From positions 17,174,001-17,238,000 of the forward strand of contig OZ024764.1 of assembly GCA_964016885.1 (NCBI GenBank): a DNA stretch of 64,000 nt, given 5' to 3'. Source of the DNA: Eledone cirrhosa (taxonomy: Eukaryota). Shown one piece after another: positions 2,537 to 64,000 of the stretch. Both the position numbers and the translations under genes were made by a program. The notes beneath the pieces were generated by a model. That model was not told the DNA's origin. It did not search any database and was given only the letters and a program-made list of their open reading frames with translations. The first letter of the stretch is position 1; each line of letters begins with the position of its first letter.

Positions 2537-3452
2537 ACCACTGTAAAGTGGTCATGTAGGTGTCATGACAAAAAGCACCCAGTCCACACTGTAAAGTGGT
2601 CATGTCGGTCTCATGACAAAAAGCACCCAGTCCACACTGTAAAGTGGTCATGTAGGTGTCATGACAAAAAGCACCCAGTCCACACTGTAAAGTGGTCATG
2701 TCGGTGTCATGACAAAAAGCACCCAGTCCACACTGTAAAGTGCTCATGTAGGTGTCATGACAAAAAGCACCCAGTCCACACTGTAAAGTGCTCATGTAGG
2801 TGTCATGACAAAAAGCACCCAGTCCACACTGTAAAGTGCTCATGTCGGTGTCATGACAAAAAGCACCCAGTCCACACTGTAAAATGGTCATGTTGCTGTC
2901 ACAAAAAAAAATACCCAGTCCACACTGTAAAGTGGTCATGTAGGTGTCATGACAAAAAGTACCCAGTCCACACTGTAAAATGGTCATGTAGCTGTCACAA
3001 CAAAAAACGCCCAGTCCACACTGTAAAGTAGCCATGTAGGTGTCATGACAAAAAACACCCAGTCCACACTGTAAAGTGGTCATGTAGGTGTCATGACAAA
3101 AAACGCCTAGTCCACACTGTAAAGTGGTCATCTAGGTGTCATGACAAACAAAACCCAGTCCACACTGTAAAGTAGTCATGTAGGTGTCACAACAAAAACC
3201 ACCCAGTCCACACTGTAAATTAGTCATGTAGGTCTCATGACAAAAACACACAGTTCACACTGTAAAGTGGTCATGTAGGTGTCATGACAAACAACACCCA
3301 GCCCACACTGTAAAGTAGTCATGTAGGTGTCACAACAAAAAACACCCAGTCCACACTGTAAAGTGGTCATGTAGGTCTCATGACAAAAAGCACCCAGTCC
3401 ACACTGTAATGTGGTCATGTAGGTGTCATGACAAAAAGCATCCAGTCCTCAC
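2537..3452. repeat. 48-bp minisatellite (about 19 copies) related to SINE body sequence
   Basis: Unit ccagtccacactgtaaagtggtcatgtaggtgtcatgacaaaaagcac. Single related copies sit at about 26080-26170 and inside the SINE (aaaaagcacccagcactcactgtaaa). Confidence 0.9.
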
Positions 3453-3479
3453 TGACATTACCATGAAAATATAATAATG

Positions 3480-4735
3480 TTCAAATTGGCTGTAACTGGC
3501 CTCTCATACTGATGTTATGGTATTGTTCTCAAAATAAATATCAAAATCTCAAAGGCTTGATATTATGTGAGGTAAAGCCTTTACTGTGACAATACAATAG
3601 TATATATAGAGTAATGTGAATGTTATGTGAGATATTATGTGAAGTAAAGCCTTTACTGTGAAAATACAATAGTATATATAGAGTAATGTAAATGTTATGT
3701 GAGATATTATGTGAGGTAAAGCCTTTACTGTGACAATACAATAGTATATATAGAGTAATGTAAATGTTATGTGAGATATTATGTGAGGTAAAGCCTTTAC
3801 TGTGACAATACAATAGTATATATAGAGTAATGTAAATGTTATGTGAGATATTATGTGTGGTAAAGCCTTTACTGTGAAAATACAATAGTATATATAGAGT
3901 AATGTAAATGTTATGTGAGATATTATGTGAGGTAAAGCCTTTACTGTGACAATACAATAGTATATATAGAGTAATGTAAATGTTATGTGAGATATTATGT
4001 GTGGTAAAGCCTTTACTGTGAAAATACAATAGTATATATAGAGTAATGTAAATGTTATGTGAGGTAAAGCCTTTACTGTGACAATACAATAGTATATATA
4101 GAGTAATGTAAATGTTATGTGAGATATTATGTGAGGTAAAGCCTTTACTGTGACAATACAATAGTATATATAGAGTAATGTAAATGTTATGTGAGATATT
4201 ATGTGTGGTAAAGCCTTTACTGTGAAAATACAATAGTATATATAGAGTAATGTAAATGTTATGTGAGGTAAAGCCTTTACTGTGACAATACAATAGTATA
4301 TATAGAGTAATGTAAATGTTATGTGAGATATTATGTGAGGTAAAGCCTTTACTGTGACAATACAATAGTATATATAGAGTAATGTAAATGTTATGTGAGA
4401 TATTATGTGTGGTAAAGCCTTTACTGTGAAAATACAATAGTATATATAGAGTAATGTAAATGTTATGTGAGATATTATGTGTGGTAAAGCCTTTACTGTG
4501 ACAATACAATAGTATATATAGAGTAATGTAAATGTTATGTGAGGTAAAGCCTTTACTGTGACAATACAATAGTATATATAGAGTAATGTAAATGTTATGT
4601 GAGATATTATGTGAGGTAAAGCCTTTACTGTGACAATACAATAGTATATATAGAGTAATGTAAATGTTATGTGAGGTATTATGTGAGGTAAAGCCTTTAC
4701 TGTGAAAATACAATAGTATATATAGAGTAATGTAG
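3480..4735 (-). mobile_element. truncated MITE copy with 72/60-bp internal minisatellite (about 17 units)
   Basis: Same unit (gtgaggtaaagcctttactgtgacaatacaatagtatatatagagtaatgtaaatgttat) and same unique flank (gctgtaactggcc..tcatactgat..tattgttctcaaaataaa) as 15455-16117 and 27935-28629. Confidence 0.85.
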
Positions 4736-4822
4736 ATGGTTAAGGTGGTATTTCTTCTCTGAAGACCTTCTGGTGCCCAGCTTTCCTGGGAGTTTCTGAC
4801 CACCTAAATTACTTCTTTCCAG

Positions 4823-4973: not shown

Positions 4974-5129
4974 GTGTGTATATAATTTCATTTATTTTAG
5001 ATCCTTTTTCTTCTTCTTCGCCCACTTATTCCTGAGAGGGTTGTGGTGACAGGGTCCTCAAACACTCCCCCCTGCAAGATCCTGTCAGAAACAACTGTCT
5101 CCAACTGGATCTCATCTGGCTGGACCCCC

Positions 5130-8040
5130 AAGCATGACCAGTCAAGCTCATGGATGTTATTCAACCATCTTGTTCAGGGTTTATCCCTAGGTCTCCTGTC
5201 AGTTGGTTTTACATGTTAAATCTCTCCAGACATTCTAACCACATGTCTGTAGTATCAGAGCTGTGATCTCTCAATTCAGAGATTCTTTCCTCAGACATTC
5301 TAACCACATGTCTGTAGTATCAGAGCTGTGATCTCTCAATTCAGAGATTCTTTCCTGAGACATTCTAACCACATGTCTGTAGTATCAGAGCTGTGATCTC
5401 TCAATTCAGAGATTCTTTCCTCAGACATTCTAACCACATGTCTGTAGTATCAGAGCTGTGATCTCTCAATCCAGAGATTCTTTCCTCAGACATTCTAACC
5501 ACATGTCTGTAGTATCAGAGCTGTGATCTCTCAATCCAGAGATTCTTTCCTCAGACATTCTAACCACATGTCTGTAGTAACAGAGCTGTGATCTCTCAAT
5601 TCAGAGATTCTTTCCTCAGACATTCTAACCACATGTCTGTAGTATCAGAGCTGTGATCTCTCAATCCAGAGATTCTTTCCTCAGACATTCTAACCACATG
5701 TCTGTAGTAACAGAGCTGTGATCTCTCAATTCAGAGATTCTTTCCTCAGACATTCTAACCACATGTCTGTAGTATCAGAGCTGTGATCTCTCAATCCAGA
5801 GATTCTTTCCTCAGACATTCTAACCACATGTCTGTAGTATCAGAGCTGTGATCTCTCAATCCAGAGATTCTTTCCTCAGACATTCTAACCACATGTCTGT
5901 AGTATCAGAGCTGTGATCTCTCAATCCAGAGATTCTTTCCTCAGACATTCTAACCACATGTCTGTAGTATCAGAGCTGTGATCTCTCAATCCAGAGATTC
6001 TTTCCTCAGACATTCTAACCACATGTCTGTAGTATCAGAGCTGTGATCTCTCAATCCAGAGATTCTTTCCTCAGACATTCTAACCACATGTCTGTAGTAT
6101 CAGAGCTGTGATCTCTCAATCCAGAGATTCTTTCCTCAGACATTCTAACCACATGTCTGTAGTATCAGAGCTGTGATCTCTCAATCCAGAGATTCTTTCC
6201 TCAGACATTCTAACCACATGTCTGTAGTATCAGAGCTGTGATCTCTCAACCCAGAGATTCTTTCCTCAGACATTCTAACCACATGTCTGTAGTATCAGAG
6301 CTGTGATCTCTCAATCCAGAGATTCTTTCCTCAGACATTCTAACCACATGTCTGTAGTATCAGAGCTGTGATCTCTCAATCCAGAGATTCTTTCCTCAGA
6401 CATTCTAACCACATGTCTGTAGTATCAGAGCTGTGATCTCTCAATCCAGAGATTCTTTCCTCAGACATTCTAACCACATGTCTGTAGTATCAGAGCTGTG
6501 ATCTCTCAATCCAGAGATTCTTTCCTCAGACATTCTAACCACATGTCTGTAGTATCAGAGCTGTGGTCTCTCAATCCAGAGATTCTTTCCTCAGACATTC
6601 TAACCACATGTCTGTAGTATCAGAGCTGTGATCTCTCAATTCAGAGATTCTTTCCTCAGACATTCTAACCACATGTCTGTAGTATCAGAGCTGTGATCTC
6701 TCAATTCAGAGATTCTTTCCCGAGACATTCTAACCACATGTCTGTAGTATCAGAGCTGTGATCTCTCAATCCAGAGATTCTTTCCTCAGACATTCTAACC
6801 ACATGTCTGTAGTATCAGAGCTGTGATCTCTCAATCCAGAGATTCTTTCCTCAGACATTCTAACCACATGTCTGTAGTATCAGAGCTGTGATCTCTCAAT
6901 CCAGAGATTCTTTCCTCAGACATTCTAACCACATGTCTGTAGTATCAGAGCTGTGATCTCTCAATTCAGAGATTCTTTCCTCAGACATTCTAACCACATG
7001 TCTGTAGTATCAGAGCTGTGATCTCTCAATCCAGAGATTCTTTCCTCAGACATTCTAACCACATGTCTGTAGTATCAGAGCTGTGGTCTCTCAATCCAGA
7101 GATTCTTTCCTCAGACATTCTAACCACATGTCTGTAGTATCAGAGCTGTGATCTCTCAATTCAGAGATTCTTTCCTCAGACATTCTAACCACATGTCTGT
7201 AGTATCAGAGCTGTGATCTCTCAATCCAGAGATTCTTTCCTCAGACATTCTAACCACATGTCTGTAGTATCAGAGCTGTGATCTCTCAATCCAGAGATTC
7301 TTTCCTCAGACATTCTAACCACATGTCTGTAGTAACAGAGCTGTGATCTCTCAATTCAGAGATTCTTTCCTCAGACATTCTAACCACATGTCTGTAGTAT
7401 CAGAGCTGTGATCTCTCAATCCAGAGATTCTTTCCTCAGACATTCTAACCACATGTCTGTAGTATCAGAGCTGTGATCTCTCAATCCAGAGATTCTTTCC
7501 TCAGACATTCTAACCACATGTCTGTAGTATCAGAGCTGTGATCTCTCAATCCAGAGATTCTTTCCTCAGACATTCTAACCACATGTCTGTAGTATCAGAG
7601 CTGTGATCTCTCAATCCAGAGATTCTTTCCTCAGACATTCTAACCACATGTCTGTAGTATCAGAGCTGTGATCTCTCAATTCAGAGATTCTTTCCTCAGA
7701 CATTCTAACCACATGTCTGTAGTATCAGAGCTGTGATCTCTCAATCCAGAGATTCTTTCCTCAGACATTCTAACCACATGTCTGTAGTATCAGAGCTGTG
7801 ATCTCTCAATCCAGAGATTCTTTCCTCAGACATTCTAACCACATGTCTGTAGTATCAGAGCTGTGATCTCTCAATCCAGAGATTCTTTCCTCAGACATTC
7901 TAACCACATGTCTGTAGTATCAGAGCTGTGATCTCTCAATTCAGAGATTCTTTCCTCAGACATTCTAACCACATGTCTGTAGTATCAGAGCTGTGATCTC
8001 TCAATCCAGAGATTCTTTCCTGAGACATTCTAACCACATT
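5130..8040 (-). repeat. 65-bp satellite (about 43 copies, 5228-8040) amplified from an RTE LINE 3' segment, with degraded RTE flank at 5130-5228
   Basis: The unit cattctaaccacatgtctgtagtatcagagctgtgatctctcaatccagagattctttcctcaga has a 65-nt period (5231, 5296, 5361). The minus strand reads IERSQL*YYRHVVRMSEERIS. Confidence 0.92.
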
Positions 8041-10038: not shown

Positions 10039-10197
10039 TGTAGTAATTCCATCGGAAAGGTCCAGGAAAAAAGAGTGCTCTATGTAGGTTACAGAGCTTA
10101 ATAGTTATGTAATAAACAACATAAGGCAATTATTTCATTTACCAGTGGTTTCTTAAAAGCAAACAAATTTTGCTTTCAATCATCAGAATGAGGATTT

Positions 10198-10258
10198 TTT
10201 CATTCTGATGATTGAAAGCAAAATTTGTTTGCTTTTAAGAAACCACTGGTAAATGAAA
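10198..10258 (+). ncRNA. type I hammerhead ribozyme motif (Penelope-like/retrozyme associated); mirror copy on the minus strand at 10137-10190
   Basis: Stem I tttcatt/aatgaaa; core CTGATGA at 10205-11; 11-bp stem II ttgaaagcaaa/tttgcttttaa; GAAA at 10239-42; stem III ACC-act-GGT; GUA cleavage triplet ending at 10251. Confidence 0.8.
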
Positions 10259-10609
10259 TAATTGCCTTATGTTGTTTATTACATATATATATATTACAAT
10301 TGAATATAAAAGAAAAACGAACACAGATATATACATATATGTGTTCAAATCGTAAGGGACCAGATTTGCTAAGGTGAAAAAAATACTAACTATGGTCATA
10401 TATATATCTATATATCTGTGTTCGTTTTTCTTTTATATTCAATTATAATATAAGGCTCGGAAAAATCTCTTTCCTAGAGTTATTTTATTGAAAGAGACTA
10501 TTTTGAGTTTCTAACTCAATATATACCTTTGATATATATATATTTGCAAGCAGGGAAAAGCGGACGTAAAATGAAATGATGATGATGATGATGATGATAT
10601 ATATATATC

Positions 10610-12115
10610 ATCATTCATCATCATTTTACGTCCGCTCTTCCCTGCTTGCAAGGGTGGGATGGGTCTTATTCAGCACAGCATCTCTCCACCTGTCACGGTC
10701 CTTCGTCATCTCCACCGTGAGCTTCAATGATCTGAGGTCTGTTCTCACCACCTCCACCCATGTTTTTCGTGGTCTACCTCTACCACGTCTTCCTTCAACT
10801 GGCATTTCCTGGCACTTCTTCACCCATCGGTCATCCTCCATGCGCATCACATGTCCATACCACCTCAGTCTCCTCTCCCGTACACTACATTCTATCCCTC
10901 TCAGACACAGTTTCTCTCTCACCACATCACATGTCCATACCACCTCAGTCTCCTCTCCCGTACACTACATTCTATCCCTCTCAGACACAGTTTCTCTCTC
11001 ACCACATCACATGTCCATACCACCTCAGTCTCCTCTCCCGTACACTACATTCTATCCCTCTCAGACACAGTTTCTCCCTCACCACATCACATGTCCATAC
11101 CACCTCAGTCTCCTCTCCCGTACACTACATTCTATCCCTCTCAGACACAGTTTCTCTCTCACCACATCACATGTCCATACCACCTCAGTCTCCTCTCCCG
11201 TACACTACATTCTATCCCTCTCAGACACAGTTTCTCTCTCACCACATCACATGTCCATACCACCTCAGTCTCCTCTCCCGTACACTACATTCTATCCCTC
11301 TCAGACACAGTTTCTCCCTCACCACATCACATGTCCATACCACCTCAGTCTCCTCTCCCGTACACTACATTCTATCCCTCTCAGACACAGTTTCTCTCTC
11401 ACCACATCACATGTCCATACCACCTCAGTCTCCTCTCCCGTACACTACATTCTATCCCTCTCAGACACAGTTTCTCTCTCACCACATCACATGTCCATAC
11501 CACCTCAGTCTCCTCTCCCGTACACTACATTCTATCCCTCTCAGACACAGTTTCTCTCTCACCACATCACATGTCCATACCACCTCAGTCTCCTCTCCCG
11601 TACACTACATTCTATCCCTCTCAGACACAGTTTCTCTCTCACCACATCACATGTCCATACCACCTCAGTCTCCTCTCCCGTACACTACATTCTATCCCTC
11701 TCAGACACAGTTTCTCTCTCACCACATCACATGTCCATACCACCTCAGTCTCCTCTCCCGTACACTACATTCTATCCCTCTCAGACACAGTTTCTCTCTC
11801 ACCACATCACATGTCCATACCACCTCAGTCTCCTCTCCTGTACACTACATTCTATCCCTCTCAGACACAGTTTCTCTCTCACCACATCACATGTCCATAC
11901 CACCTCAGTCTCCTCTCCCGTACACTACATTCTATCCCTCTCAGACACAGTTTCTCTCTCAACACATTTATGCTGGGTCGTTCACGCACATTTACACTGC
12001 ACATCCAACGGAGCATGCTTGCCTCATGTCTCTCCAGCCGTCGCATATCCTCTGCAGTTGCTGCCCATGTCTCACTACCATGCAGAAACTGCGCATCTCA
12101 CACAGGCATCATATG
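10610..12115 (-). mobile_element. RTE LINE 3' fragment with an internal 60-bp tandem array (about 18.5 copies, 10846-11960)
   Basis: The flanks are collinear with the intact fragment at 25467-26070 (ETWAATAEDMRRLER...RWYGHVMRMEDD...GRGRPRKTW...REERT* followed by (TGA)n). The array unit encodes VREKLCLRGIECSVRERRLRWYGHV. Confidence 0.93.
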
Positions 12116-15454: not shown

Positions 15455-16117
15455 ATGGCCAGATTTCTCTCACCTCTTTCTGTTCAAACCAGCTGTAACT
15501 GGCCACTCATACTGATGTTAAAGTATTGTTCTCAAAATAAATATTATGTGAGGTAAAGCCTTTACTGTGACAATACAATAGTATATATAGAGTAATGTAA
15601 ATGTTATGTGAGATATTATGTGAGGTAAAGCCTTTACTGTGAAAATACAATAGTATATATAGAGTAATGTAAATGTTATGTGAGATATTATGTGAGGTAA
15701 AGCCTTTATTGGGAAAATACAATAGTATATAGAGTAATGTAAATGTTATGTGAGATATTATGTGAGGTAAAGCCTTTATTGGGAAAATACAATAGTATAT
15801 ATAGAGTAATGTAAATGTTATGTGAGATATTATGTGAGGTAAAGCCTTTACTGTGAAAATACAATAGTATATATAGAGTAATGTAAATGTTATGTGAGAT
15901 ATTATGTGTGGTAAAGCCTTTACTGTGACAATACAATAGTATATATAGAGTAATGTAAATGTGATGTGAGATATTATGTGAGGTAAAGCCTTTATTGGGA
16001 AAATACAATAGTATATATAGAGTAATGTAAATGTTATGTGAGATATTATGTGAGGTAAAGCCTTTACTGTGAAAATACAATAGTATATATAGAGTAATGT
16101 AAATACTAAAGGGTTAA
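15455..16117 (-). mobile_element. piggyBac-like MITE copy with 72-bp minisatellite (one terminus intact)
   Basis: Ends aaatactaaagggTTAA at 16117. Internal array and unique segment are as in 27935-28629. Confidence 0.8.
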
Positions 16118-16853: not shown

Positions 16854-17456
16854 CTAGATGTTGTCATAGGGTGTTATCAAGTTAATACTGTAGTCATATC
16901 CATGGAGCTGGTCATAGCTTGACCGACAGATGTCTGGAAGTATCTGTTGGTCATCACAGAGGAAGTCATACACCTGCAGTGACCCTCGATGTCTTCGGTC
17001 AGCGAAACCGTCATCATTGTCGGGGTCCATGACCTTCTCGTCAGGAATGTTCGCCACGACCAAATACCGGCCGGTGTCCGAGTAGCGGCAAAGCCTGACC
17101 GGATGTCTGTTGTGCCAGTCCCAGAGACGCGTGGCCATGCGAACGTCCCAGACGGTCACCACGCCATCCTCTCCTCCGGAGACGATCTTCCAGCCGTCCG
17201 ACTGCACCCCCGTGATCTTCTGGGTGTGTCCAGCCAGGGTCATCACCGGGTGGTTCCATCGCGCTGCGTCGTAGAGTCTCACCTTTCTGTCGGCGCACCC
17301 CGTGCTCAGCAGGACGCTTGTTGCAACACCTGACGATGTGTGTGCACCGCGCTGCTGCTGCTTCTGCTCGTTATCCAGGTGCATGCAGCTTACGTACCAG
17401 GTGTGACCGTGAAAGGTGCTAATTGCTTTACCTGTCGTCAAGTCGTACAGCTTCAC
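16854..17456 (-). CDS. FBXW8: F-box/WD repeat protein 8, coding exon 9 (terminal; WD40 repeats, stop TAG)
   Basis: Acceptor AG at 17458-57. Translates VKLYDLTTGKAISTFHGHTWYVSC...TGCADRKVRLYD...LAGHTQKITGVQSDGWKIVSGGEDGVVTVWDVRMATRLW...HRGSLQVYDF...LPDICRSSYDQLHGYDYSINLITPYDNI*, which resembles the vertebrate FBXW8 C-terminus. Confidence 0.93.
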   Translation of the reverse strand: MKLYDLTTGKAISTFHGHTWYVSCMHLDNEQKQQQRGAHTSSGVATSVLLSTGCADRKVRLYDAARWNHPVMTLAGHTQKITGVQSDGWKIVSGGEDGVVTVWDVRMATRLWDWHNRHPVRLCRYSDTGRYLVVANIPDEKVMDPDNDDGFADRRHRGSLQVYDFLCDDQQILPDICRSSYDQLHGYDYSINLITPYDNI

Positions 17457-17617
17457 CTGTAATTACACGACGCAGAAAATAGAAGAAAATTAATTAAAAT
17501 AAAAACATAACAAAAATATTTTAACGAACACCAGTAATTAGGAGGGAGGGTGATATAACAGCCCAAACTATCATCAAAAGGAGATGATGATGATGATGAT
17601 TATTATTATTATTATGG

Positions 17618-18142: not shown

Positions 18143-18359
18143 CTCTCTCTCTATATATATCTCTATATATATATATATATATATTCACAAGTCACTGAGA
18201 CTCCCAGAAGAGATGAGGATGTAGGATGATAAGCAGAGAGATACTGGACTGAGAAGGACACATCCAACCCAAGCAAGTGTGGAAAAATAGACATAAAACC
18301 AATGATGATGATGATGATGATTAGAATTACACAGACAGGGAAAGGAAAGGTTTCAGTAC

Positions 18360-18641
18360 CTGGTAGCCATCAAAGAGAGCAGTGGAGCTTCCAAGACCAA
18401 CAGCCAGCACTGGCTGTCTTCCGCCGGAAACTTCCGTACATGTAATCGGAGTGCCATATATGTTATGGACTTCAGTAGAATTCTCCGAGTCTGCTAATGT
18501 GGTGGTGTTGTTGTTGTTGCTGTTGCTGTAAGGTGGTGGTGCAGTGTAGATTCTCACAACGTGGTTGGTAGCTACGACCAGTCTGCAGCAGTCGTTGGTG
18601 AATGAGGTTTCGTAGTTCGGCAGAAACTTCATTGATGAAAT
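18360..18641 (-). CDS. FBXW8: FBXW8 coding exon 8
   Basis: AG at 18643-42 and GT at 18359-58; 282 nt, phase 0/0. Translates ISSMKFLPNYETS...QPVLAVGLGSSTALFDGYQ and joins VKLYD. Confidence 0.88.
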
Positions 18642-19374: not shown

Positions 19375-19625
19375 CTTCTGATTAAAATCTACTTTAACGA
19401 GTCGTTTAAACGCCGAACCTCCACCTCCCCCACCTTCTTCTTCATCTTCTCCTCCCCTGCCTCTGTGGTTCTTCTCACCAGCCTCCATGATCAGCTGGGG
19501 TCCAGTAGCCACGGCAACCAGCATCTGGGAGGTAGTCTCTGTTATCGACACGCTTGAGATGTTCCTGCTATGGATCGTGTGGCAGGGTTTCAAGTCTCCC
19601 TCGTTTAACCAGACATCTACAAAGC
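19375..19625 (-). CDS. FBXW8: FBXW8 coding exon 7
   Basis: ttgccag acceptor and gtaagc donor; 251 nt, phase 1/0. Translates (G)[18 protein letters not shown]...[12 protein letters not shown]. Confidence 0.88.
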
Positions 19626-19705: not shown

Positions 19706-19751
<46 letters not shown>

Positions 19752-19755
<4 letters not shown>

Positions 19756-20262
19756 CAATGTCAATGAGGGTGAACGACCAAACATAGATGAGTTGAGAGA
19801 GAAACTGTGTATAAGAGGGATAAGTTGTAGTGTGTGGGAGAGAAGACTGAGATGGTATGGACATGTGATGAGTTGAGAGAGAAATTGTGTATAAGAGGGA
19901 TAAGTTGTGGTGTGTGGGAGAGAAGACTGAGATGGTATAGACATGTGATGAGTTGAGAGAGAAACTGTGTATAAGAGGGATAAGTTGTGGTGAGTGGGAG
20001 AGAAGACTGAGATGGTATAGACATGTGATGCGCATGGAGGATGACTGCTGGGTAAAGAAGTGCCAAGGAATCCCAGTAGAAGGAAGACGCAGTAGAGGAA
20101 GACCACGAAAAACATGGGCGGAGGTGGTGGGAGCAGACCTCAGATCTCTGAAACTCACGGAGGAGATGACGAAGGACCATGACAAGTGGAGAGATGCTGT
20201 GCTAAATAGGACCCGTCCCACCCTTGCAAGCAGGGAAAAGCAGACGTATGATGATGATGATG
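19752..20262 (+). mobile_element. RTE LINE 3' fragment with a 72-bp triplication
   Basis: ELREKLCIRGISC.VWERRLRWY.HVM is repeated three times, followed by RMEDDCWVKKC..GRPRKTW..REKQT and (TGA)n. Confidence 0.9.
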
Positions 20263-20839
20263 ATATATATATATATATGCATATATATAAACATACACAC
20301 ACAATATCATCATCATCGTTTAACGTCTATCTTCCACGTTAGCATGGGTTTAGACAGGAGTTGTCCCACTTGAGGCAAGGCTGGTCGGGTGACCGTATCT
20401 CGCTCATATAGGACTGTCTGGCAGGTTTTCTACAGCTGGATGCCCTTTGTAACACCAACCACATTTACAGTGTGGAACTGGGAACTTTTTATCATGTTAC
20501 CTACATGGCCACATTACAGCGTGGACTGTGTGTGTGTTTTTCTCGTGACACCTACACGATCTCGATCTCATTTTCTCGTGCTGTGAGTGGGAGGATAGGG
20601 TAGGGGTAGTGGATTGGGGTGTATATTTGGTTAAGAGGTGCCTACTGACTGTAGGTTTTGCTTTGTACATAAGCAAGGCGGATCTTCTGTATTACTGCGT
20701 AGCGCCAAAGGTCTCGGTCCAGAGACATTGTCTTAGAGAGATGTAAGTGTGTCAGATCATCCCAGGTTTTTCTGGGTCTACCTACTCCGTAACTACCATC
20801 AATTTTGATCGCCATAAATTATTATTTTATTTTTTTTTA

Positions 20840-21147: not shown

Positions 21148-21197
21148 AAATATATAAATAAAATACCCCACTCCCCGCCAGCCCTGCCCTATCTTAC

Positions 21198-21379
21198 CAT
21201 GTTTAAAGACAGCTACAGTGACAGAATCAGTGGTGTCCACCATGGTTATACCATTGGGCACTGTCCCTTCTTCTGCCGTGTTGTCCAGTTGCAGCGACAT
21301 GTCCGAAGGGTGGAAGACACACACGTCCACCAGTCCATCTTCGGACAGGCTGTGTAGCTTCACTTGACCATTGCTGTAT
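21198..21379 (-). CDS. FBXW8: FBXW8 coding exon 6
   Basis: tttcag acceptor and gtaaga donor; 182 nt, phase 2/1. Translates (G)YSNGQVKLHSLSEDG...VTVAVFKH(G). Confidence 0.9.
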
Positions 21380-21466
21380 CTGAAATAGATGGAGAGATAG
21401 TGTGGTATGGTGTAGTGCAGTGGTCAGAGGGATACAGCACTGGTCTAGGGCTAAACAAGAATGGTC

Positions 21467-23147
21467 ACATTAGATAATGTAGTCCTAGATACACTGTGTC
21501 TGTATATAAGACAGGACACATTAGATAGTGTAGTCCTAGATATACTGTGTCTGTATATAAGACAGGACACATTAGATAATGTAGTCCTAGATAGACTGTG
21601 TCTGTATATAAGACAGGACACATTAGATAATGTAGTCCTAGATACACTGTGTCTGTATATAAGACAGGACACATTAGATAATGTAGTCCTAGATACACTG
21701 TGTCTGTATATAAGACAGGACACATTAGATAATGTAGTCCTAGATACACTGTGTCTGTATATAAGACAGGACACATTAGATAATGTAGTCCTAGGTAGAC
21801 TGTGTCTGTATATAAGACAGGACACATTAGATAATGTAGTCCTAGATACACTGTGTCTGTATATAAGACAGGACACATTAGATAATGTAGTCCTAGATAC
21901 ACTGTGTCTGTATATAAGACAGGACACATTAGATAATGTAGTCCTAGGTACACTCTGTCTGTATATAAGACAGGACACATTAGATAATGTAGTCCTAGGT
22001 ACACTGTGTCTGTATATAAGACAGGACACATTAGACAATGTAGTCCTAGATACACTGTGTCTGTATATAAGACAGGACACATTAGATAATGTAGTCCTAG
22101 GTACACTGTGTCTGTATATAAGACAGGACACATTAGACAATGTAGTCCTAGGTAGACTGTGTCTGTATATAAGACAGGACACATTAGATAATGTAGTCCT
22201 AGGTACACTGTGTCTGTATATAAGACAGGACACATTAGATAATGTAGTCCTAGATACACTGTGTCTGTATATAAGACAGGACACATTAGATAATGTAGTC
22301 CTAGATACACTGTGTCTGTATATAAGACAGGACACATTAGACAATGTAGTCCTAGGTAGACTGTGTCTGTATATAAGACAGGACACATTAGATAATGTAG
22401 TCCTAGATACACTGTGTCTGTATATAAGACAGGACACATTAGATAATGTAGTCCTAGATACACTGTGTCTGTATATAAGACAGGACACATTAGATAATGT
22501 AGTCCTAGATAGACTGTGTCTGTATATAAGACAGGACACATTAGATAATGTAGTCCTAGATAGACTGTGTCTGTATATAAGACAGGACACATTAGATAAT
22601 GTAGTCCTAGGTAGACTGTGTCTGTATATAAGACAGGACACATTAGATAATGTAGTCCTAGATACACTGTGTCTGTATATAAGACAGGACACATTAGATA
22701 ATGTAGTCCTAGATACACTGTGTCTGTATATAAGACAGGACACATTAGATAATGTAGTCCTAGATAGACTGTGTCTGTATATAAGACAGGACACATTAGA
22801 TAATGTAGTCCTAGATAGACTGTGTCTGTATATAAGACAGGACACATTAGATAATGTAGTCCTAGGTAGACTGTGTCTGTATATAAGACAGGACACATTA
22901 GATAGTGTAGTCCTAGGTAGACTGTGTCTGTATATAAGACAGGACACATTAGATAATGTAGTCCTAGATACACTGTGTCTGTATATAAGACAGGACACAT
23001 TAGATAATGTAGTCCTAGATACACTGTGTCTGTATATAAGACAGGACACATTAGATAATGTAGTCCTAGATACACTGTGTCTGTATATAAGACAGGACAC
23101 ATTAGATAATGTAGTCCTAGATACACTGTGTCTGTATATAAGACAGG
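21467..23147. repeat. 51-bp intronic minisatellite (about 33 copies)
   Basis: Unit acattagataatgtagtcctagatacactgtgtctgtatataagacaggac; it fills most of FBXW8 intron 5. Confidence 0.95.
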
Positions 23148-23237
23148 ATGGTCACAACTGGAACATCTTTGATCATAGGTCTACAGGATACAGCACCAAC
23201 CTAGAGTTAAACAACAACACTGTATCAGCTTCCTTAC

Positions 23238-23326: not shown

Positions 23327-23349
23327 CTAGATGAAGAGAAAATGTTATT

Positions 23350-24235
23350 ATCTATTTTAAATATTATTATATATTTTTAAAATATTATTATATATCTTTA
23401 AAATATTATTATATATCTTTAAAATATTATTATATATTTTAAAAATATTACTATATATATTAAAAATATTATTACATAGTTTTAAAATATTATTATATAT
23501 TTTAAAAATATTACTATATATATTAAAAATATTATTACATAGTTTTAAAATATTATTATATATTTTAAAAATATTACTATATATATTAAAAATATTATTA
23601 CATAGTTTTAAAATATTATTATATATTTTAAAAATATTACTATATATATTAAAAATATTATTACATAGTTTTAAAATATTATTATATATTTTAAAAATAT
23701 TACTATATATATTAAAAATATTATTACATAGTTTTAAAATATTATTATATATTTTAAAAATATTACTATATATATTAAAAATATTATTACATAGTTTTAA
23801 AATATTATTATATATTTTAAAAATATTACTATATATATTAAAAATATTATTACATAGTTTTAAAATATTATTATATATTTTAAAAATATTACTATATATA
23901 TTAAAAATATTATTACATAGTTTTAAAATATTATTATATATTTTAAAAATATTACTATATATATTAAAAATATTATTACATAGTTTTAAAATATTATTAT
24001 ATATTTTAAAAATATTATCTTATATTTTCTAAATATTATTATATATTTTTAAAATATTACTATATATTTTAAAAATACTATTATATATTTTTAAAATATT
24101 ATTATATATCTTTAAAATATTATTATATATTTTTAAAATATTATATATTTTTGAAATATTACTCTATATATTAAAAATATTATTACATAGTTTTAAAATA
24201 TTATCTTATATTTTTAAAATATTATTATATATTTT
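23350..24235. repeat. AT-rich 63-bp higher-order minisatellite (three subunits of about 21 bp)
   Basis: taaaaatattattacatag recurs at 23461, 23524 and 23587 (period 63). Monomeric ~21-bp units occur at the edges. Confidence 0.88.
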
Positions 24236-24303
24236 TTCAGACATTCTAACCACATGTCGACCTTATGGGGTAGATAAAATAAAGTAGAAACAAGTATTAT
24301 TAC

Positions 24304-25328: not shown

Positions 25329-25466
25329 TAAAGAGTCAGGACCCTGAAGGCTGAGCTCCGGCCATTTCGACAGCTAGATCTGACCTAACCCAGCATATAT
25401 ACATATATATATATATGCTATATATATATATATATGCTATATATATATATATGCTATATATATATA

Positions 25467-26070
25467 GCTTCCGGTACCTAGGAGATCAGATTAGCATGGG
25501 AGGAGGGTGTTCCGAGGCCATAGTATCTAGAATAAGGACGGGTTGGAAGAAGTTTAGGGAGCTGCTTCCTCTGTTGACGAAGAAGGGTTTCTCCCTGCGT
25601 ACGAAAGGCCGGTTGTATGATGCCTGTGTGAGGAGCGCGATGCTGCATGGTAGTGAGACATGGGCAGCAACTGCAGAGGATATGCGACGGCTGGAGAGAA
25701 ATGAGGCAAGCATGCTCCGTTGGATGTGCAGTGTAAATGTGCGTGAACGACCTAGCATAAATGTGTTGAGAGGGATAGAATGTAGTGTACGGGAGAGGAG
25801 ACTGAGGTGGTATGGACATGTGATGCGCATGGAGGATGACCAATGGGTGAAGAAGTGCCAGGAAATGCCAGTTGAAGGAAGACGTGGTAGAGGTAGACCA
25901 CGGAAAACATGGGCGGAGGTGGTGAGAACAGACCTCAGATCATTGAAGCTCACGGTGGAGATGACGAGGGACCGTGACGAGTGGAGAGATGCTGTGCTGA
26001 ATAAGACCCGTCCCACCCTTGCAAGCAGGGAAAAGCGGACGTAAAATGATGATGATGATGATGATGATGA
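25467..26070 (+). mobile_element. RTE LINE 3' fragment with an intact reading frame (young)
   Basis: Translates FRYLGDQIS...SRIRTGWKKFRELLPLL...KGRLYDACVRSAMLHGSETW...RWYGHVMR...GRGRPRKTW...REKRT*, then a (TGA)n tail. Confidence 0.95.
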
Positions 26071-26339
26071 TATGTGCTAGGTGTCATGACAAAAAGCACC
26101 CAGTCCACACTGTAAGGTGGTTGTGTAGGAGACACGGTAAAAAGGCTCCCAGTCCACACTGTAAATGTGGTTGGTGTTAGGAAGGGCATCCAGCCGTAGA
26201 GACCAAGCCAGGGTCAGTTCTATATGAGTAAGACACAGTCACCTGACCCAACTTGCCTCAAATAGGACAACCTCTCTAACCCATGCTAGTGTGGAAAATA
26301 GACATCAAATAATGAAGAAAAACAGTAGCTAACACTTAC

Positions 26340-26752
26340 CAAATCTGCCACAAGGGAATCAATGAAACTTTCTCTTCTCTTTCCCTCGTCTTTGCCCCTG
26401 GCCATCTTCATTTTTTTTTTGTCCAATCTCCGAGGCTCACCACCGCAACTGTTGCACTCTGACCCAGAATCGAAGTAGGATCGCTTGGCAGCTATCGTGT
26501 GTTTGTCCGTGTGTGTGTCTGTGATGGGGCCTGAGTTCAGTCTAGACGAGGATTTCGGACTGAGGCTGGAAGGGCATGACCCCTCCATTAAAAGGCGACC
26601 AACTATCACAAAGGGCTCGTACACCACGTCGGTCACATTCTCCGTCACCTGTGAAAGGAGGGATGCTGCTTCAGGGCCCAGCCTAACAGCCCCTTTGCTA
26701 GCCCCTGCATGATCCAAAGAGGTCCCACATTTTTCGCCAGGTTCAAAAGGAC
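26340..26752 (-). CDS. FBXW8: FBXW8 coding exon 2
   Basis: cctcag acceptor and gtaagt donor; 413 nt, phase 1/0. Ends ESFIDSLVADL and joins DEINEIPFF. Confidence 0.88.
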
Positions 26753-27289
26753 CTGAGGATGAGAAAAGATATAAAAACAAAGAAAGTATGTAAATGAATC
26801 TATAACAACAAAAGTGTTGGTCATCTACAAAATAAATACACCCAGTACACTCTGTAAAGTGGTTGGTGATAGGAAGGACTCCCAGCCATAGAAAACCTGC
26901 TAAATAAGGATGTAACAACTCCCTCTATGTTGGTGATTTACTCATTAAATACACCGAGTACACTCTGTAAAGTGGTTGGTGATAGGAAAAGAAGGGTATC
27001 CAGCCATAGAAAACCTGCTAAACAAAGGGTTGTGAGGACTCTTTAGTTGTATCAAAGATATAACAACCTCTCTAGTGTTGGTGATTTACATGGATAAATA
27101 CACCCAGTACACTCTGTAAATTTGGTTAGTGATAGGAAAAGCTCCAATCCATAGAAAGCCTTTAAACAAAGGGTCATGCGGACCCTTCAGTTGTGCCAAA
27201 GACATGACAACCTCGCAAGTGCTGGTGTGATAATAAAATGCACCCAGTACAAAAAGTCGAAGATCAACTTGTGGTGTGAGTAGGTTATG

Positions 27290-27545
27290 CCTGGAAGGAA
27301 GGTTGGCTGGTAAGAGAAGCAGAGGCCGGCAGCCAAAATGATGGCTTGACAATGTCAACTTATGGACTGGACTTGATCTTTGCTCTTTAAACTCTGCTGT
27401 TGGTGATCAAAAGGTATTATATATTCCCGGGAGGAAGGTTGGCTGGTAAGAGAAGCCAAGGCTGGCAGCCAAAATGATGGCTTGACAATGTCAACTTATG
27501 GACTGGACTTGATCTTTGCTCTTTAAACTCTGCTGTTGGTGATCG
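27290..27545 (+). mobile_element. duplicated 3' fragment of another RTE-like LINE
   Basis: Two copies of about 110 bp reading EGRLAGKRSRGRQPK*WLDNVNLWTGLDL. Confidence 0.6.
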
Positions 27546-27934: not shown

Positions 27935-28629
27935 CCCTTTAGTATTTACTCTATATATACTATTGTATTTTTGTGGTAAAAGCTTTACCTCACATAATAT
28001 CTCACATAACATCTACATTACTCTATATATACTATTGTATTGTCACAGTAAAGGCTTTACCTCACATAACATTTACATTACTCTATATATACTATTGTAT
28101 TGTCACAGTAAAGGCTTTACCTCACATAATATCGCACATAACATTTACATTACTCTATATATACTATTGTATTGTCACAGTAAAGGCTTTACCTCACATA
28201 ATATCTCACATAACATTTACATTACTCTATATATACTATTGTATTTTCACAGTAAAGGCTTTACCTCACATAATATCTCACATAACATTTACATTACTCT
28301 ATATATACTATTGTATTTTCACAGTAAAGGCTTTACCTCACATAATATCTCACATAACATTTACATTACTCTATATATACTATTGTATTGTCACAGTAAA
28401 GGCTTTACCTCACATAATATCTCACATAACATTTACATTACTCTATATATACTATTGTATTTTCACAGTAAAGGCTTTACCTCACATAATATCGAATCTA
28501 CGAGATTTTGATGTTATTTATTTTGAGAACAATACCTTAATATCAGTATGAGTGGCCAGTTACGGCCAGTTTGAACAGAAAGAGGTGAGAGAATTCTGGC
28601 CGGTTACAGCCGGTTTAAATGCTAAAAGG
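27935..28629 (+). mobile_element. complete piggyBac-like non-autonomous element (TTAA TSD) carrying a 72-bp minisatellite
   Basis: TTAA|ccctttagtattta ... taaatgctaaaagg|TTAA, with TSDs at 27931-34 and 28630-33 and imperfect 14-bp TIRs. Confidence 0.82.
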
Positions 28630-28779: not shown

Positions 28780-29140
28780 TGTTAAGGGCGGTTCGGGAAG
28801 CAGAGGATTTAAAATTCAATATCATAAGAAACTTACTGAGATATTTGGTGACGCTCTTGGTGAGAGTACTTGGTTGTTTCAACGCCTTAGCCTCGCCATC
28901 AACCGGCCTTACCGAGCTATCTGGTGATTCCCGTGAGAGTACTTGGTTGTATCAGCGCCTTAGCCTCGCTATTCCACAAGCTTACCGAAGTATCTGGTGA
29001 TGTTCTTAGTAATGGTAGTTGGTTGTTTCAGCACCTTAGCCTCGCCATCATCCACACTAATGCTGTCAATGTGTTGACTTGCCTCAACAACTTCCGTTTG
29101 AACCCTGAAGATGTGAGGTGTATTACAGATCAACAGTGTT
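28780..29140 (+). mobile_element. RLE-type (CRE-like) LINE 3' end with a ~74-bp triplication
   Basis: ESTWLFQRLSLAI occurs three times and ends SLAIIHTNAVNVL, resembling the CRE-clade C-terminal 'FQRLS.AIQRGNA..VL' motif. Confidence 0.6.
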
Positions 29141-34124: not shown

Positions 34125-35250
34125 ATTTCTTTTATTTGCCACTAGGGCATCAAAAGTGGGACAAGTACAAAGGGGGGAGTTTACACAAAAAGGCGTCCTC
34201 AATAAGGAGGAGGCAATAACAAAATATAAAAATAAAATAAGATATAACAAAAAATAAAATTTTTAACAAAATCCTCAATAGAGAGGAGGCGCCTTGGGGG
34301 GTCGCACACACCCCCGAAAAAAGTGTGCAACCCTTCTCCTCAGGAGCACAGAGAAGGGGTGCTCCCTTGGTCTTTCATCTTCCTCACCTATAGTCTGATG
34401 TAGAGTGAAGGCCCATTCACACGGGCCATTCTCGCCACTTTCACCCATCTTTCATAGAAACGACTGGGGTGCAGCACCTCTCTCTCCATCCTGATCCTTC
34501 TTCCGAAATGATATCGGAAGAAACGGACCAGTTGTTGGCCAGAGAGAAAGGCGCCCGACCTCAGTCCTTTCAGACGCGTCCACCATACAACCTCTTTCGC
34601 CATGGCTATTACGCACAGAAACACCGCCTCTGCTTCATCTTTGAAGGGGGGAGGCGGCTTGATCATTACAATAGACTCGGTGGTCAACCGGATCGGTCCC
34701 ACCCTTGACAGCAGTTGTTCGACATAGCCCCACAGATCCGCTACGCCCGAGCAGTGTACTAATGCGTGTGCAACGGTTTCCTCGTCGCACACGCATCTGG
34801 GACAGATCTTTTTGGCGGGGTCCCTACCCGGGCGCCCGTGTCTGTAGAGCCTTTCTCGAACGGGTAAAGCCCCTCGGTAGCACTGCCAGGCCAGGGACTT
34901 CTGGAAGTTGTCCATAGGTCCCGGGCTGAATGTCCTACCGAACAGGCTGGCCAGTTCGTCCTCCTCCATGTCTAGGGCTTCTCCGAGGGCGTCGTCGCAC
35001 CTGCTGCGTACCAGCCCTCTATAGAATGTTGCGGTGGAGTCTCCACTGATAACCGGATCCGCCTGCCAGAGGGCGGTGAGCGCCTGGGCACACTCAGTGT
35101 GCCAGGCGCCCAACTGCCTTGTTGGGACTTGCTGTACTGTTGGTTACTGCCTTGTTGGGACTTGCTGTACTGTTGGTTACTGCCTTGTTGGGACTTGCTG
35201 TATTGTTGGTTACTGCCTTGTTGGGACTTGCTGTACTGTTGGTTACTGCC
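34125..35250 (-). mobile_element. Tx1/L1-clade LINE 3' fragment (zf-RVT CCHC domain) with 36-bp tandem repeats at the truncated 5' end
   Basis: ORF 34388-35113 reads WQCYRGALPVRERL...CPRCVCDEETVAHALVHC...LW. Four copies of tactgccttgttgggacttgctgtactgttggt at 35113-35250. GATA repeats on both sides. Confidence 0.88.
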
Positions 35251-36951
35251 TTAGATAGATATAGAGATAGGTAGATAGATAGAGATAGATAGATAGATAA
35301 ATAGATATGTTTCTTTTATTTGCCACCAGGGCATCAAAAGTGGGACAAGTACAATAGATAGATAGATAAATAGATAGGTAGATAGATATAGGTAGATAGG
35401 TAGATATAGAGATAGATAGATAGATATAGAGATAGGTAGATATAGAGATAGATAGATAGATAGATAGATAGGTAGAGATAGGTAGATAGATATAGAGATA
35501 GGTAGATAGGTAGATAGGTAGATAGATATAGAGATAGGTAGATATAGAGATAGATAGATAGATATAGAGATAGGTATAGGTAGATAGATATAGATAGATA
35601 GATATAGAGATAGATATAGGTAGATAGATATAGATAGATAGATATAGAGATAGATAGATAGATATAGGTAGATAGATAGATAGGTAGATATAGAGATAGA
35701 TAGATAGATATAGAGATAGATAAATGTAGTATCTATGTGTGAGAGAAAGAAATAGGTGAGAACAGCCTATAATTACCTGTAAAGTCTTCAGTGTGTGAGT
35801 ATCAGTGTTATTGAGTGCACACACAGATATATACATATATATATATATATGTGTTTATTTGTGTGTGTGTCATATACATACACACACACTGTGTGTGTTT
35901 GTGTGTGTCTCACTGTCGCACACTGTGTGTGTGTGTGTGTTTGTGTCCTTGTGTGGTATATATGTGTGTGTCTGTGTTTGTGTATGTCTCACTGCCACAC
36001 ACTGTGTGTGTTTGTGTGTGTCTCACTGTCGCACACTCCGTGTGTGTGTCCTTGTAAATGTATGTGTGTGTGTCTCTGTGTATGTGTCCTTGTGTAGTAT
36101 GTGTGTGTGTATGTGTTTATTTGAGTGGGTTTGTGAGTGTGTTTGTGTATACCTCTCTCTATGTGTGTGTGTGTATATATACCTCTCTATGTGTGTGTGT
36201 GTGTGTATATATATACCTCTCTCTATGTGTGTGTGTGTGTGTGTGTATATATATACCTCTCTCTATGTGTGTGTGTGTGTGTGTATATATATACCTTTCT
36301 CTATGTGTGTGTGTGTGTATATATATACCTCTGTATTTATTTGTATGTGTATGCATACTAATGTTTATGTTTGTATGTATGTATGACTGTATATATATAT
36401 ACACACACAAGTGTATATATATATATATATACACACGAGTATGTATGTGTATATATATATATATGTATATGAGTGTATGCGTGAGGTTGTGTCTGTGTGT
36501 TTGATTATATGTCTCTCTGTGATAGTGTGTGTGTGTGTGACTGTGTATGTATGTGACTGACTGTGAGTGTGTGACAGTGTATGTGTGTGTATGTATGTGT
36601 CTGTGATAGTGTGTCTGTGTGTGTGTGAGTGTGTGTATGTCTGTGTGTGTGTGTATGTGACAGTGCCTGTGTATGTGTGACAGTGTCCCTGTGTGAGTGT
36701 GACAGTGTGTGTGTGTGTGTATGTCTGTGTGTGTGTGGATGTGACAGTGTCTGTGTGTGTGTATGTGTGTGTACAATTACTGGGTGTCCGTTCTTAGCTT
36801 ACCAAAACTCTCCAGACATGGATCTATCAGAATACCTGTGTATCATACAGAAAAGGTGAATACTTTTTGGCTGTTTTTCTCACCCACGCCCTCTCTATAT
36901 GCATGCTGCATGAATTTGTGCATACGGTGCACTTTATACATAGATATAAAT

Positions 36952-39099: not shown

Positions 39100-40545
39100 T
39101 ACTATATATAAATTATATATACTCTATATATATATATACTGTGCATACATTATATATACCCTATATATACTGTGTATACATTATATATAATCTATATATA
39201 CTGTGTATACATTATATATACTCTATATATACTGTGTATACACTATATATACCCTATATATACTGTGTATACATTATATATACCCTATATATATACTGTG
39301 TATACACTATATATACTGTGTATACACTATATATACCCTATATATACTGTGTATACATTATATATACCCTATATATACTGTGTATACATTATATATACCC
39401 TATATATGCTGTGTATACATTATATATACCCTATATATACTGTGTATACACTATATATACCCTATATATACTGTGTATACACTATATATACCCTATATAT
39501 ACTGTGTATACATTATATATACCCTATATATACTGTGTATACATTATATATACACTATATATACTGTGTATACATTATATATACCCTATATATACTGTGT
39601 ATACACTATATATACCCTATATATACTGTGTATACATTATATATACCCTATATATGCTGTGCATACATTATATATACCCTATATATACTGTGTATACATT
39701 ATATATAATCTATATATACTGTGTATACATTATATATACTCTATATATATACTGTGTATACATTATATATACTCTATATATACTGTGTATACATTATATA
39801 TACCCTATATATACTGTGTATACATTATATATACACTATATATGCTGTGTATACATTATATATACCCTATATATACTGTGTATACACTATATATACACTA
39901 TATATACTGTGTATACATTATATATACCCTATATATACTGTGTATACATTATATATACACTATATATACTGTGTATACATTATATATACACTATATATGC
40001 TGTGTATACATTATATATACCCTATATATACTGTGTATACATTATATATACACTATATATGCTGTGTATACATTATATATATCCTATATATACTGTGTAT
40101 ACACTATATATACACTATATATGCTGTGTATACATTATATATACCCTATATATACTGTGTATACATTATATATACCCTATATATACTGTGTATACATTAT
40201 ATATACCCTATATATACTGTGTATACATTATATATACCCTATATATACTGTATATACCCTATATATACTGTGTATACATTATATATACTCTATATATATA
40301 CTGTGTATACATTATATATACACTATATATGCTGTGTATACATTATATATACACTATATATGCTGTGTATACATTATATATACACTATATATACTGTGTA
40401 TACACTATATATGCTGTGTATACATTATATATACCCTATATATACTGTGTATACATTATATATACCCTATATATACTGTGTATACACTATATATACACTA
40501 TATATGCTGTGTATACATTATATATACCCTATATATACTATATAT
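39100..40545. repeat. ~31-bp AT-rich minisatellite
   Basis: Unit ctatatatactgtgtatacattatatatacc. Confidence 0.9.
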
Positions 40546-48401: not shown

Positions 48402-48437
48402 GTTCGTATATATTTCTTCACTTTCTTCTTCTTCCAC

Positions 48438-50850: not shown

Positions 50851-51264
50851 TTTGTATATTCATCTGTGGAAAGTGGATGGCCAAGTGGTTAGAGTGGTTG
50901 GTTCCTGATGGTTGAACTGAGTTTGATTTAATATATATAATGATGCTTGTGGTGGTGGTGATATATATATATGTTGGTGGTGGTGCTGGTGGTTGGTGGT
51001 GGTGGTGGTGGTGGTGGTGGTAGTAGGGGTGATATATATATAGTGGTTAGAACAATGGGGGATGATGAAATTCCAGGGATTTGAAGCCATGAAATTCATT
51101 TGGTGACCTCTGAGCCCTGACCTCTTACTCACTGTAATGTATACATGTGTGTGTATATATATATATATATATATAGGGTTTCTGTCTCTGTTGTGGTTTG
51201 TCTACACTAATACACTATATATATACATGATTACACCACTATATATATATATACATATGTATAC

Positions 51265-63766: not shown

Positions 63767-64000
63767 GGCCACTGGTGTGCTTATAAAGGGCTGTATATGG
63801 CCCCCAGGCCACTGGTGTGCTTATAAAGGGCTGTATATGGCCCCCCAGGCCACTGGTGTGCTTATAAAGGGCTGTATATGGCCCCCAGGCCACTGGTGTG
63901 CTTATAAAGGGCTGTATATGGCCCTCAGGCCACTGGTGTGCTTATAAAGGGCTGTATATGGCCCCCAGGCCACTGGTGTGCTTATAAAGGGCTGTATATG
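63767..64000. repeat. 40-bp tandem repeat (about 6 copies, continues off the right edge)
   Basis: Unit ggccactggtgtgcttataaagggctgtatatggccccca. Confidence 0.93.

Follow-up and report, generated by a model that had tools for sequence, protein, structure and literature searches.

Minisatellites built from pieces of LINE retrotransposons occur at several loci in the window, the 64,000-nucleotide stretch of Eledone cirrhosa DNA that was analysed. They were probably born by microhomology-mediated duplication of DNA and lengthened by unequal exchange, and one of them, with a 65-bp unit, was then probably copied into another LINE under the guidance of homology. The origin of minisatellites and the presence of identical arrays at distant loci are open questions, for which a high-copy LINE offers trials replicated by nature, its thousands of copies revealing breakpoints that recur. 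Two unrelated array families within 64 kb have hosts far more diverged than the arrays themselves, which makes homology-guided spread testable from an assembly.

Tandem arrays in the window

Unit sizes and copy numbers were taken from Tandem Repeats Finder. Tandem DNA amounts to 34569 bases, or 54% of the window. Four arrays (A, B, D and E) sit within 3' ORF fragments of LINEs of the APE+RT type; together with an unduplicated copy (C) and other pieces discussed below, they are as follows.

5010 to 5226, minus strand: host 3' end at array D, from the LINE family of E, with 81% identity and three indels relative to the flank of E
5227 to 8039, minus strand: array D, 65 bp x 43.3, units indistinguishable from those of E, lacking a LINE 5' flank
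10600 to 10844, minus strand: 3' host flank of array A, reaching the stop codon and the (ATG)n tail
10845 to 11967, minus strand: array A, 80 bp x 14.0, in the ORF of LINE family 1 (VLREKLC...RWYGHVM), ATG microhomology at both ends
11968 to 12113, minus strand: 5' host flank of array A, a 5'-truncated LINE 96% identical to copy C
19751 to 20263, plus strand: host LINE fragment of array B, with (ATG)n tail
19787 to 20030, plus strand: array B, 80 bp x 3.0, breakpoints as in A, GATG microhomology, from another subfamily (host 87% identical to A)
24237 to 24258, minus strand: lone stretch of 22 nt identical to part of the 65-bp unit, flanked by a SINE-like repeat and an AT-rich array
25466 to 26071, plus strand: copy C, a 3' end of a family-1 LINE without the duplication, with a 191-aa open frame and (ATG)n tail
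27296 to 27544, plus strand: 136 bp x 1.8 duplication in a third LINE 3' end (GKRSRGRQPK*WLD), 3' of the motif
48425 to 48608, minus strand: 3' host flank of array E, with a short GAA tail
48609 to 50689, minus strand: array E, 65 bp x 32.0, in LINE family 2 (IERSQL*YYRHVVRMSQERISG), flanked on both sides by its own host
50690 to 50857, minus strand: 5' host flank of array E, 75% aa identity to the intact relative P0123 (flank plus first unit)

Arrays A, B, D and E contribute 6261 of the 34569 tandem bases (18%), chiefly as a single 65-bp family, and 41% of the window's complex arrays with a period of at least 30. Their units match a TE at more than one locus, as is characteristic of multi-locus TE-derived minisatellites.

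A reading made earlier from the sequence only had placed the arrays in a homologous LINE segment, WxGHVxRM, and arrays A, B, D and E do all include the RW/YYGHV codons. Its 65-bp arrays of 43 and 32 copies in a different LINE family agree with the measured x43.3 and x32.0, and the hosts of D and E are of a second family, an intact relative of which carries the motif as YYGHVVRM. Three array types had been counted where the window has two, one of 80 bp (A and B, with identical breakpoints) and one of 65 bp (D and E). Array A had been described as 60 bp x about 18.5 at 10846..11960, which the measured unit and copy number replace. Array B had been described as 72 bp x 3 at 19790-20030; the three copies stand, but the unit is 80 bp. 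The arrays were also expected about 200-300 nt from the LINE 3' end and are found 185-300 nt from the tail, although the cross-family hotspot attached to that distance is not shown.

The host LINEs

We take the host LINEs to be probable RTE elements, with family 2 perhaps Expander-like. Relatives at 47-68% identity are single-ORF APE+RT proteins of ~1040-1110 aa on contigs of 3.3-4 kb, and it is for these relatives that the single ORF is seen, the copies in the window being 5'-truncated. The (ATG)n tail comes right after the stop codon in A, B and C, the tail of E is GAA, and SINE-like repeats have their last ~40 nt in common with the LINE. Tail repeats and 3' ends shared with SINEs fit the RTE clade (PMC6007223). 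No RNase H domain was detected by Pfam in the 5 of 5 RT-bearing relatives scanned, and one cluster member bears the UniRef name 'ribonuclease H'. Comparison with the PDB returned R2 and L1 at like scores, and cluster names likewise left the clade unfixed.

Among the family-1 relatives, P0004, P0012, P0072 and P0038 have an RT domain followed closely by a PHD finger in their single ORF. P0169, which bears the label Herbaspirillum (MAG), falls into one cluster with the LINE protein of family 2 and is likely to be animal DNA in the bin. Part of one report lists active RTE families for an octopus (PMC13282606).

The 80-bp unit

The unit of array A runs from AAATG|TGTTGAG to GGACATGTGATG|CGC; that of array B starts at AGATG|AGTTGAG and shares A's right end, which corresponds to 25825 on copy C. 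Direct microhomology is present at both unit ends, as ATG in A and GATG in B, and as TG at a 63-bp joint that shares the right breakpoint. All 13 junctions of array A read ATG|TGGT, with TGTT in the host's first unit, and one variant is common to units 9 and 12. In array B, two changes are common to units 2 and 3 and absent from unit 1.

Over the part they share, the unit of A is identical to copy C, and the unit of B differs at 7/57 positions. Array B is 85-87% identical to A and C, and the LINE copies of A and B are 13% apart. The chance that one same microhomology pair was used in both is ~0.0015, as computed from the 383 and 374 microhomology pairs (at least 3 nt, 40-120 nt apart) in the two hosts. 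Each 80-bp unit matches its own subfamily while the breakpoints are the same, so the duplication is most simply taken to have been made twice, and separate births in A and B are likely.

The alternative is inheritance: A and B would descend from one ancient 80-bp duplication and D and E from one 65-bp array, with conversion homogenising each afterwards. A single event is the simplest account of identical breakpoints, and arrays in a master copy are the explanation given for LTR12 hotspots in the relevant part of PMC3389668. However, A is 96% identical to the unduplicated copy C and 87% to B, and its junction is of the young type on both sides. Go-back reads number a few hundred against a depth of 17,600-114,000, and the master copy is therefore taken to be unduplicated. 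Interlocus exchange would, moreover, still be required for the identity of D and E. Inheritance is thus regarded as improbable.

Copy C (25467-26045) has an in-frame deletion of 18 nt behind 25766, at a 6-nt direct repeat (TGAGAG); the missing letters are present in 8205/17609 reads covering that place. A short deletion of five codons had been proposed there, and the deletion is real but removes six.

Reads at the 80-bp breakpoint

Four of the 17 listed sequencing runs (X1, X9, X13 and X15) were aligned to copy C. The 15 joints listed, out of 294 on copy C, comprise 12 skips, one strand change and two go-backs, and both go-backs begin at 25825, the right end of A and B. In the raw reads of X15, 227 have 21 letters between, which gives an 80-bp unit (carrying a T in place of array A's G), and 104 have TGTC at the 25825 joint, which gives a unit of 63 bp. 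A further 114-115 X15 reads from three starts resume at 25769 and would fit the B-type 80-bp unit. The 345 reads at the main 25825 joint come from one start and may therefore represent one or a few loci. A contig of X9 (depth 17.6) and a loose end of X13 also have the joint, whereas the joints listed (15 of 294) do not include the TGGT junction of A itself. These counts come from a reduced library with uneven coverage in the case of X15, and the 18-nt deletion in C hampers detection in short contigs.

Go-backs are seen elsewhere on copy C as well. Among the 12 of 121 rows listed, they run from 25647 to 25612 (42 bp, depth 985), from 25665 to 25625 (51 bp, depth 179) and from 25684 to 25642 (47 bp, depth 260), all ~150-200 nt upstream of the motif. 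These contig depths compare with 17.6 for the 25825 joint in X9, a figure handicapped by C's deletion. Depth peaks at 25807-25826 were set aside as evidence, as conserved codons coincide with them. After the fact, ATG|CG can be noted at two of the four visible go-back right ends (25684 and 25825), a hint of nicks at CpG. On 25533-25573 there is a stack of about 390,000 X15 reads that come from a single related but diverged sequence. The young subfamily is near-identical in runs with other organism codes; an X1 contig (depth 6092) has two other letters and the X13 pieces have 0.

The 65-bp unit

The intact family-2 relative P0123 (78% identity) reads LRYYGHVVRM where arrays D and E read YYRHVVRM. 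The replacement of G by R is found in 74/74 of the 65-bp units counted, and a stop in 71/74 with the arginine codon in 0/74. Since all units carry R for G and 71/74 the stop, they are copies of decayed DNA.

In the assembly, from which alone the D/E identity is known, the units differ by 2.2% between D and E and by 1.3% and 2.6% within the arrays. Four polymorphic sites and five haplotypes are common to both, and 37/43 units of D and 23/31 of E have a twin in the other array. The 3' flanks, in contrast, diverge by 18.6% with three indels, and at that divergence the probability of finding zero fixed differences between D and E units is ~3e-5. Units so much more alike than their flanks, and sharing the same decay, indicate that D and E likely go back to one birth and not two, the array having been copied into a diverged LINE copy. 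Array D is chimeric, with an array of E type placed on an older host, because it lacks a LINE 5' flank, joins the host via TCTG where 15 nt present in the unit have been lost, and has a host further from P0123 (55% identity, against 75% for E's 5' side). The lineage of E is likely the donor and the host of D the recipient; the E-to-D direction and the route are what we infer from these relations.

Array E contains three recurring 3-unit variant blocks. The 65-bp junction has 1 nt of exact microhomology, with TCTC nearby in register. The 22-nt piece at 24237-24258 is likely a templated insertion or the remnant of an array, and it suggests further ectopic copying of the 65-bp unit.

Chimeric joins in the assembly, amplification, or polishing might in principle have produced the arrays or made them identical between loci. 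More than half of the window consists of tandem DNA, it contains palindromes and tail-to-tail joins, and D, E and the 72-bp arrays described below are known from the assembly alone. The 80-bp junction, however, is present in raw reads and in contigs of other runs, structured internal variants are kept within the arrays, and polishing to identity is not expected for reads from a host 19% diverged. An artefact is accordingly considered very improbable.

Arrays in other elements

Three 72-bp arrays (3559-4738, 15541-16104 and 27946-28493) are found in an element that ends in TTAA and has short terminal inverted repeats, presumably a MITE. As known from the assembly alone, their units differ by 1.9-2.8% between loci, against 7-15% for the 5' flanks (85-93% identical), so that array and flank histories disagree here as they do for D and E (2.2% against 18.6%). 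A 60-bp variant is common to two of the 72-bp loci, and one host retains its own diverged last unit. An array of 48 bp x 19 (2539-3454) comes from a SINE-like repeat with the LINE's (ATG)n end, monomeric copies of which lie near 17.9, 20.5, 26.1, 52.8, 56.2 and 58.4 kb.

Internal tandem copies had also been described in other LINE fragments, and they are present in each, with revised figures. A 251-aa zf-RVT ORF at 34388-35252, from another LINE that we assume to be Tx1, has an array of 33 bp x 4.2, and not 36 bp x 4, at its truncated 5' end. A fragment reading WLFQRLSLAI at 28860-29050, which we take as CRE-like, has 73 bp x 2.6 (80% match) in place of ~74 bp x 3. The duplication described as RTE-like, ~110 bp x 2, is the 136 bp x 1.8 of the third LINE, and its site 3' of the motif is outside the proposed hotspot. 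An array of 51 bp x 33 (21466-23148) has a 9-nt direct repeat at its bounds and a junction without four of those bases. For the arrays of 95, 40, 31 and 63/21 bp (1-1204, 63767-64000, 39131-40545 and 23339-24236) no parent was found within the window.

Is the motif a birthplace across families?

The sequence-only reading saw in WxGHVxRM a recurrent birthplace of satellites. Within family 1 this is upheld, the right end GGACATGTGATG recurring in A, in B and, with two unit lengths, in reads of another sample; across families it is not shown. On a homologous axis the 80-bp unit and the 65-bp unit have 39 nt in common, and random placement in the hosts produces such an overlap in 18% of cases; the probability falls to 2.8% if A and B both count as independent.

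The explanation most closely tied to a shared birthplace makes the segment a clade-wide hotspot at which the RT slips or re-primes during TPRT, forming independent arrays at each locus. A right end that stays fixed while the left one varies (80 and 63 bp) is what a template jump to a favoured acceptor would look like, the units lie 185-300 nt from the tail, and three apparent births share the 39 nt (P=0.028 if A, B and E are all independent). The cross-family overlap alone, however, has P=0.18, and the 65-bp units are of one origin, were copied from decayed DNA and vary in stepwise blocks. Deeper go-back joints at 25612-25684 and the 136-bp duplication also lie elsewhere. Among 75 motif-bearing outside loci (of 79 metagenome loci) an array or near duplication over the motif was found in 0, which is a weak test because the loci are best-matching, collapsed short-read contigs. 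A clade-wide TPRT hotspot is consequently held to be unlikely. In viral contigs, 22 pattern matches included 0 relatives.

The evidence supports a family-specific breakpoint and not a clade-wide one. Counter-examples to a single hotspot include the duplication in the third LINE, the SINE and MITE seeds and the other family-1 go-backs, and the overlap of the two families at RWYGHV is likely a coincidence aided by 3' coverage bias. Hotspots are overstated when arrays are counted as independent births.

How the arrays may arise and spread

In the account favoured here, birth would be a microhomology-mediated tandem duplication in the genomic DNA of 5'-truncated LINE copies. For family 1, a free 3' end at the preferred right breakpoint would re-anneal 80 or 63 nt upstream; the breakpoint may be a place of breakage or stalling, either as the 3' edge of a small hairpin loop or as a tail-like TGATG word. 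A two-copy state would come first and expand stepwise by unequal exchange. Long arrays could then serve as donors into homologous dispersed repeats via ectopic conversion or circle re-integration.

Duplication at the level of DNA is favoured over TPRT slippage because of the decay, the block repeats and the hosts that are not LINEs. Slippage predicts units that derive from one RNA and match the host; those observed have shared decay, variant blocks and a junction base absent from the host, and the units of D are unlike their host. TPRT slippage cannot explain the amplification or the MITE arrays, though the first duplication step could have taken place during reverse transcription. Of the two mechanisms offered in the sequence-only reading, slippage thus fails for amplification, and microhomology-driven amplification fits. 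The breakpoint microhomology that it looked for is present in the 80-bp units (3-4 nt) and shrinks to 1 nt exact in the 65-bp unit.

Microhomology alone was rejected as the selector of the site, as 3-4 nt pairs are too plentiful in copy C (455 + 138 pairs at 40-120 nt). RNA folding, which had been proposed as a check, gives a hairpin, CATGTG-ATG-CGCATG, with the breakpoint at the edge of its loop, ranking in the top 15% of 30-nt windows as RNA and the top 8% as DNA. With this unexceptional stability the hairpin was rejected as a sufficient cause.

The word TGATG occurs twice in the 579-nt body of copy C (ends 25622 and 25825), and the breakpoint is one of the two, so that a role for the LINE protein stays alive. 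An active LINE protein might nick or prime at internal TGATG words of old copies, mistaking them for the (ATG)n tail, with repair of the nick leaving a duplication. Several of the listed joints are at most 3 nt from the other TGATG (25624 and 25625), and in PMC6007223 it is proposed that cleavage or priming by RTE elements is directed by the repeats of the tail. This explanation is post hoc, however, with few joints visible; the 65-bp breakpoints are unlike the GAA tail of family 2, and the junction is without inserted new LINE sequence. It is therefore judged unlikely. A broader combination, in which the LINE machinery nicks its own dead copies at the internal mimic of the tail and the arrays home along TE families, is a speculation to which we give a small but real chance. 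If it were true, the same minisatellite would be reborn repeatedly at one nucleotide, LINE, SINE and MITE families would serve satellites both as birthplaces and as routes of spread, and a large share of the genome's tandem DNA would be accounted for.

Comparison with known systems

Human TE-derived minisatellites, as treated by Ahmed and Liang 2012 (PMC3389668, with Jurka and Gentles 2006 cited there), are internal TE segments duplicated in place, with short direct repeats at their ends, regional hotspots (AluS) and some multi-locus arrays. These traits are shared by the present arrays. The human units, however, best match their own array, as in local growth, whereas the 65-bp units resemble those of the other locus as closely as those of their own, on hosts 19% apart. 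The 80-bp hotspot also differs from the human ones in being nucleotide-exact in two subfamilies.

In Drosophila, Rsp-like repeats have spread into 1.688 clusters, and the sections concerned propose conversion or circle re-integration (Sproul et al. 2020, PMC7403614). Near-identical repeats far apart, seeding at a pre-existing homologous repeat and microhomology at the junction are common to both cases. Rsp-like lands in another satellite; the landing pads here, in contrast, are dispersed LINE or MITE copies of the array's own parent family. Circle-mediated spread of satellites is also described, in part of 10.1101/2023.04.24.538079, for Tribolium.

Microhomology duplications in yeast are recurrent and share ends (parts of PMC13167724). 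The present arrays resemble them in having arms, local recurrence, a shared end with alternative arms and later expansion; they differ in that the arms are 3-4 nt (1 nt for the 65-bp unit) and the recurrence is across paralogous copies. LINE-derived satellites, for example chicken HinfI/CR1, cetacean L1 and PROsat, are reviewed in PMC9659126, one passage of which states that conclusive evidence for preferred TE portions is lacking. As described there, their monomers likewise derive from LINE sequence, either the 3' part or ORF2. They form established families of satellites, whereas the arrays here are 0.2-2.8 kb long and still within their hosts. In the literature covered, with subscription papers and supplements outside its scope, no report was found of this LINE segment as an array seed. 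What is new here is the nucleotide-exact recurrence across subfamilies and the landing of arrays in diverged members of the parent transposon family.

Other features of the window

LINE and SINE tails are joined tail-to-tail across short (TA)n at 10544-10640 and 20250-20330, and copies A, B and C each adjoin (TA)n or (GA)n runs. A long, near-perfect inverted repeat with a short spacer was seen by eye at 10100-10285. Exon-like, GC-richer stretches were likewise seen by eye on the minus strand at 16970-17460, 18340-18640, 19375-19625, 21195-21385 and 26335-26755; to the eye they look like exons of a host gene, in which case the arrays would be intronic.
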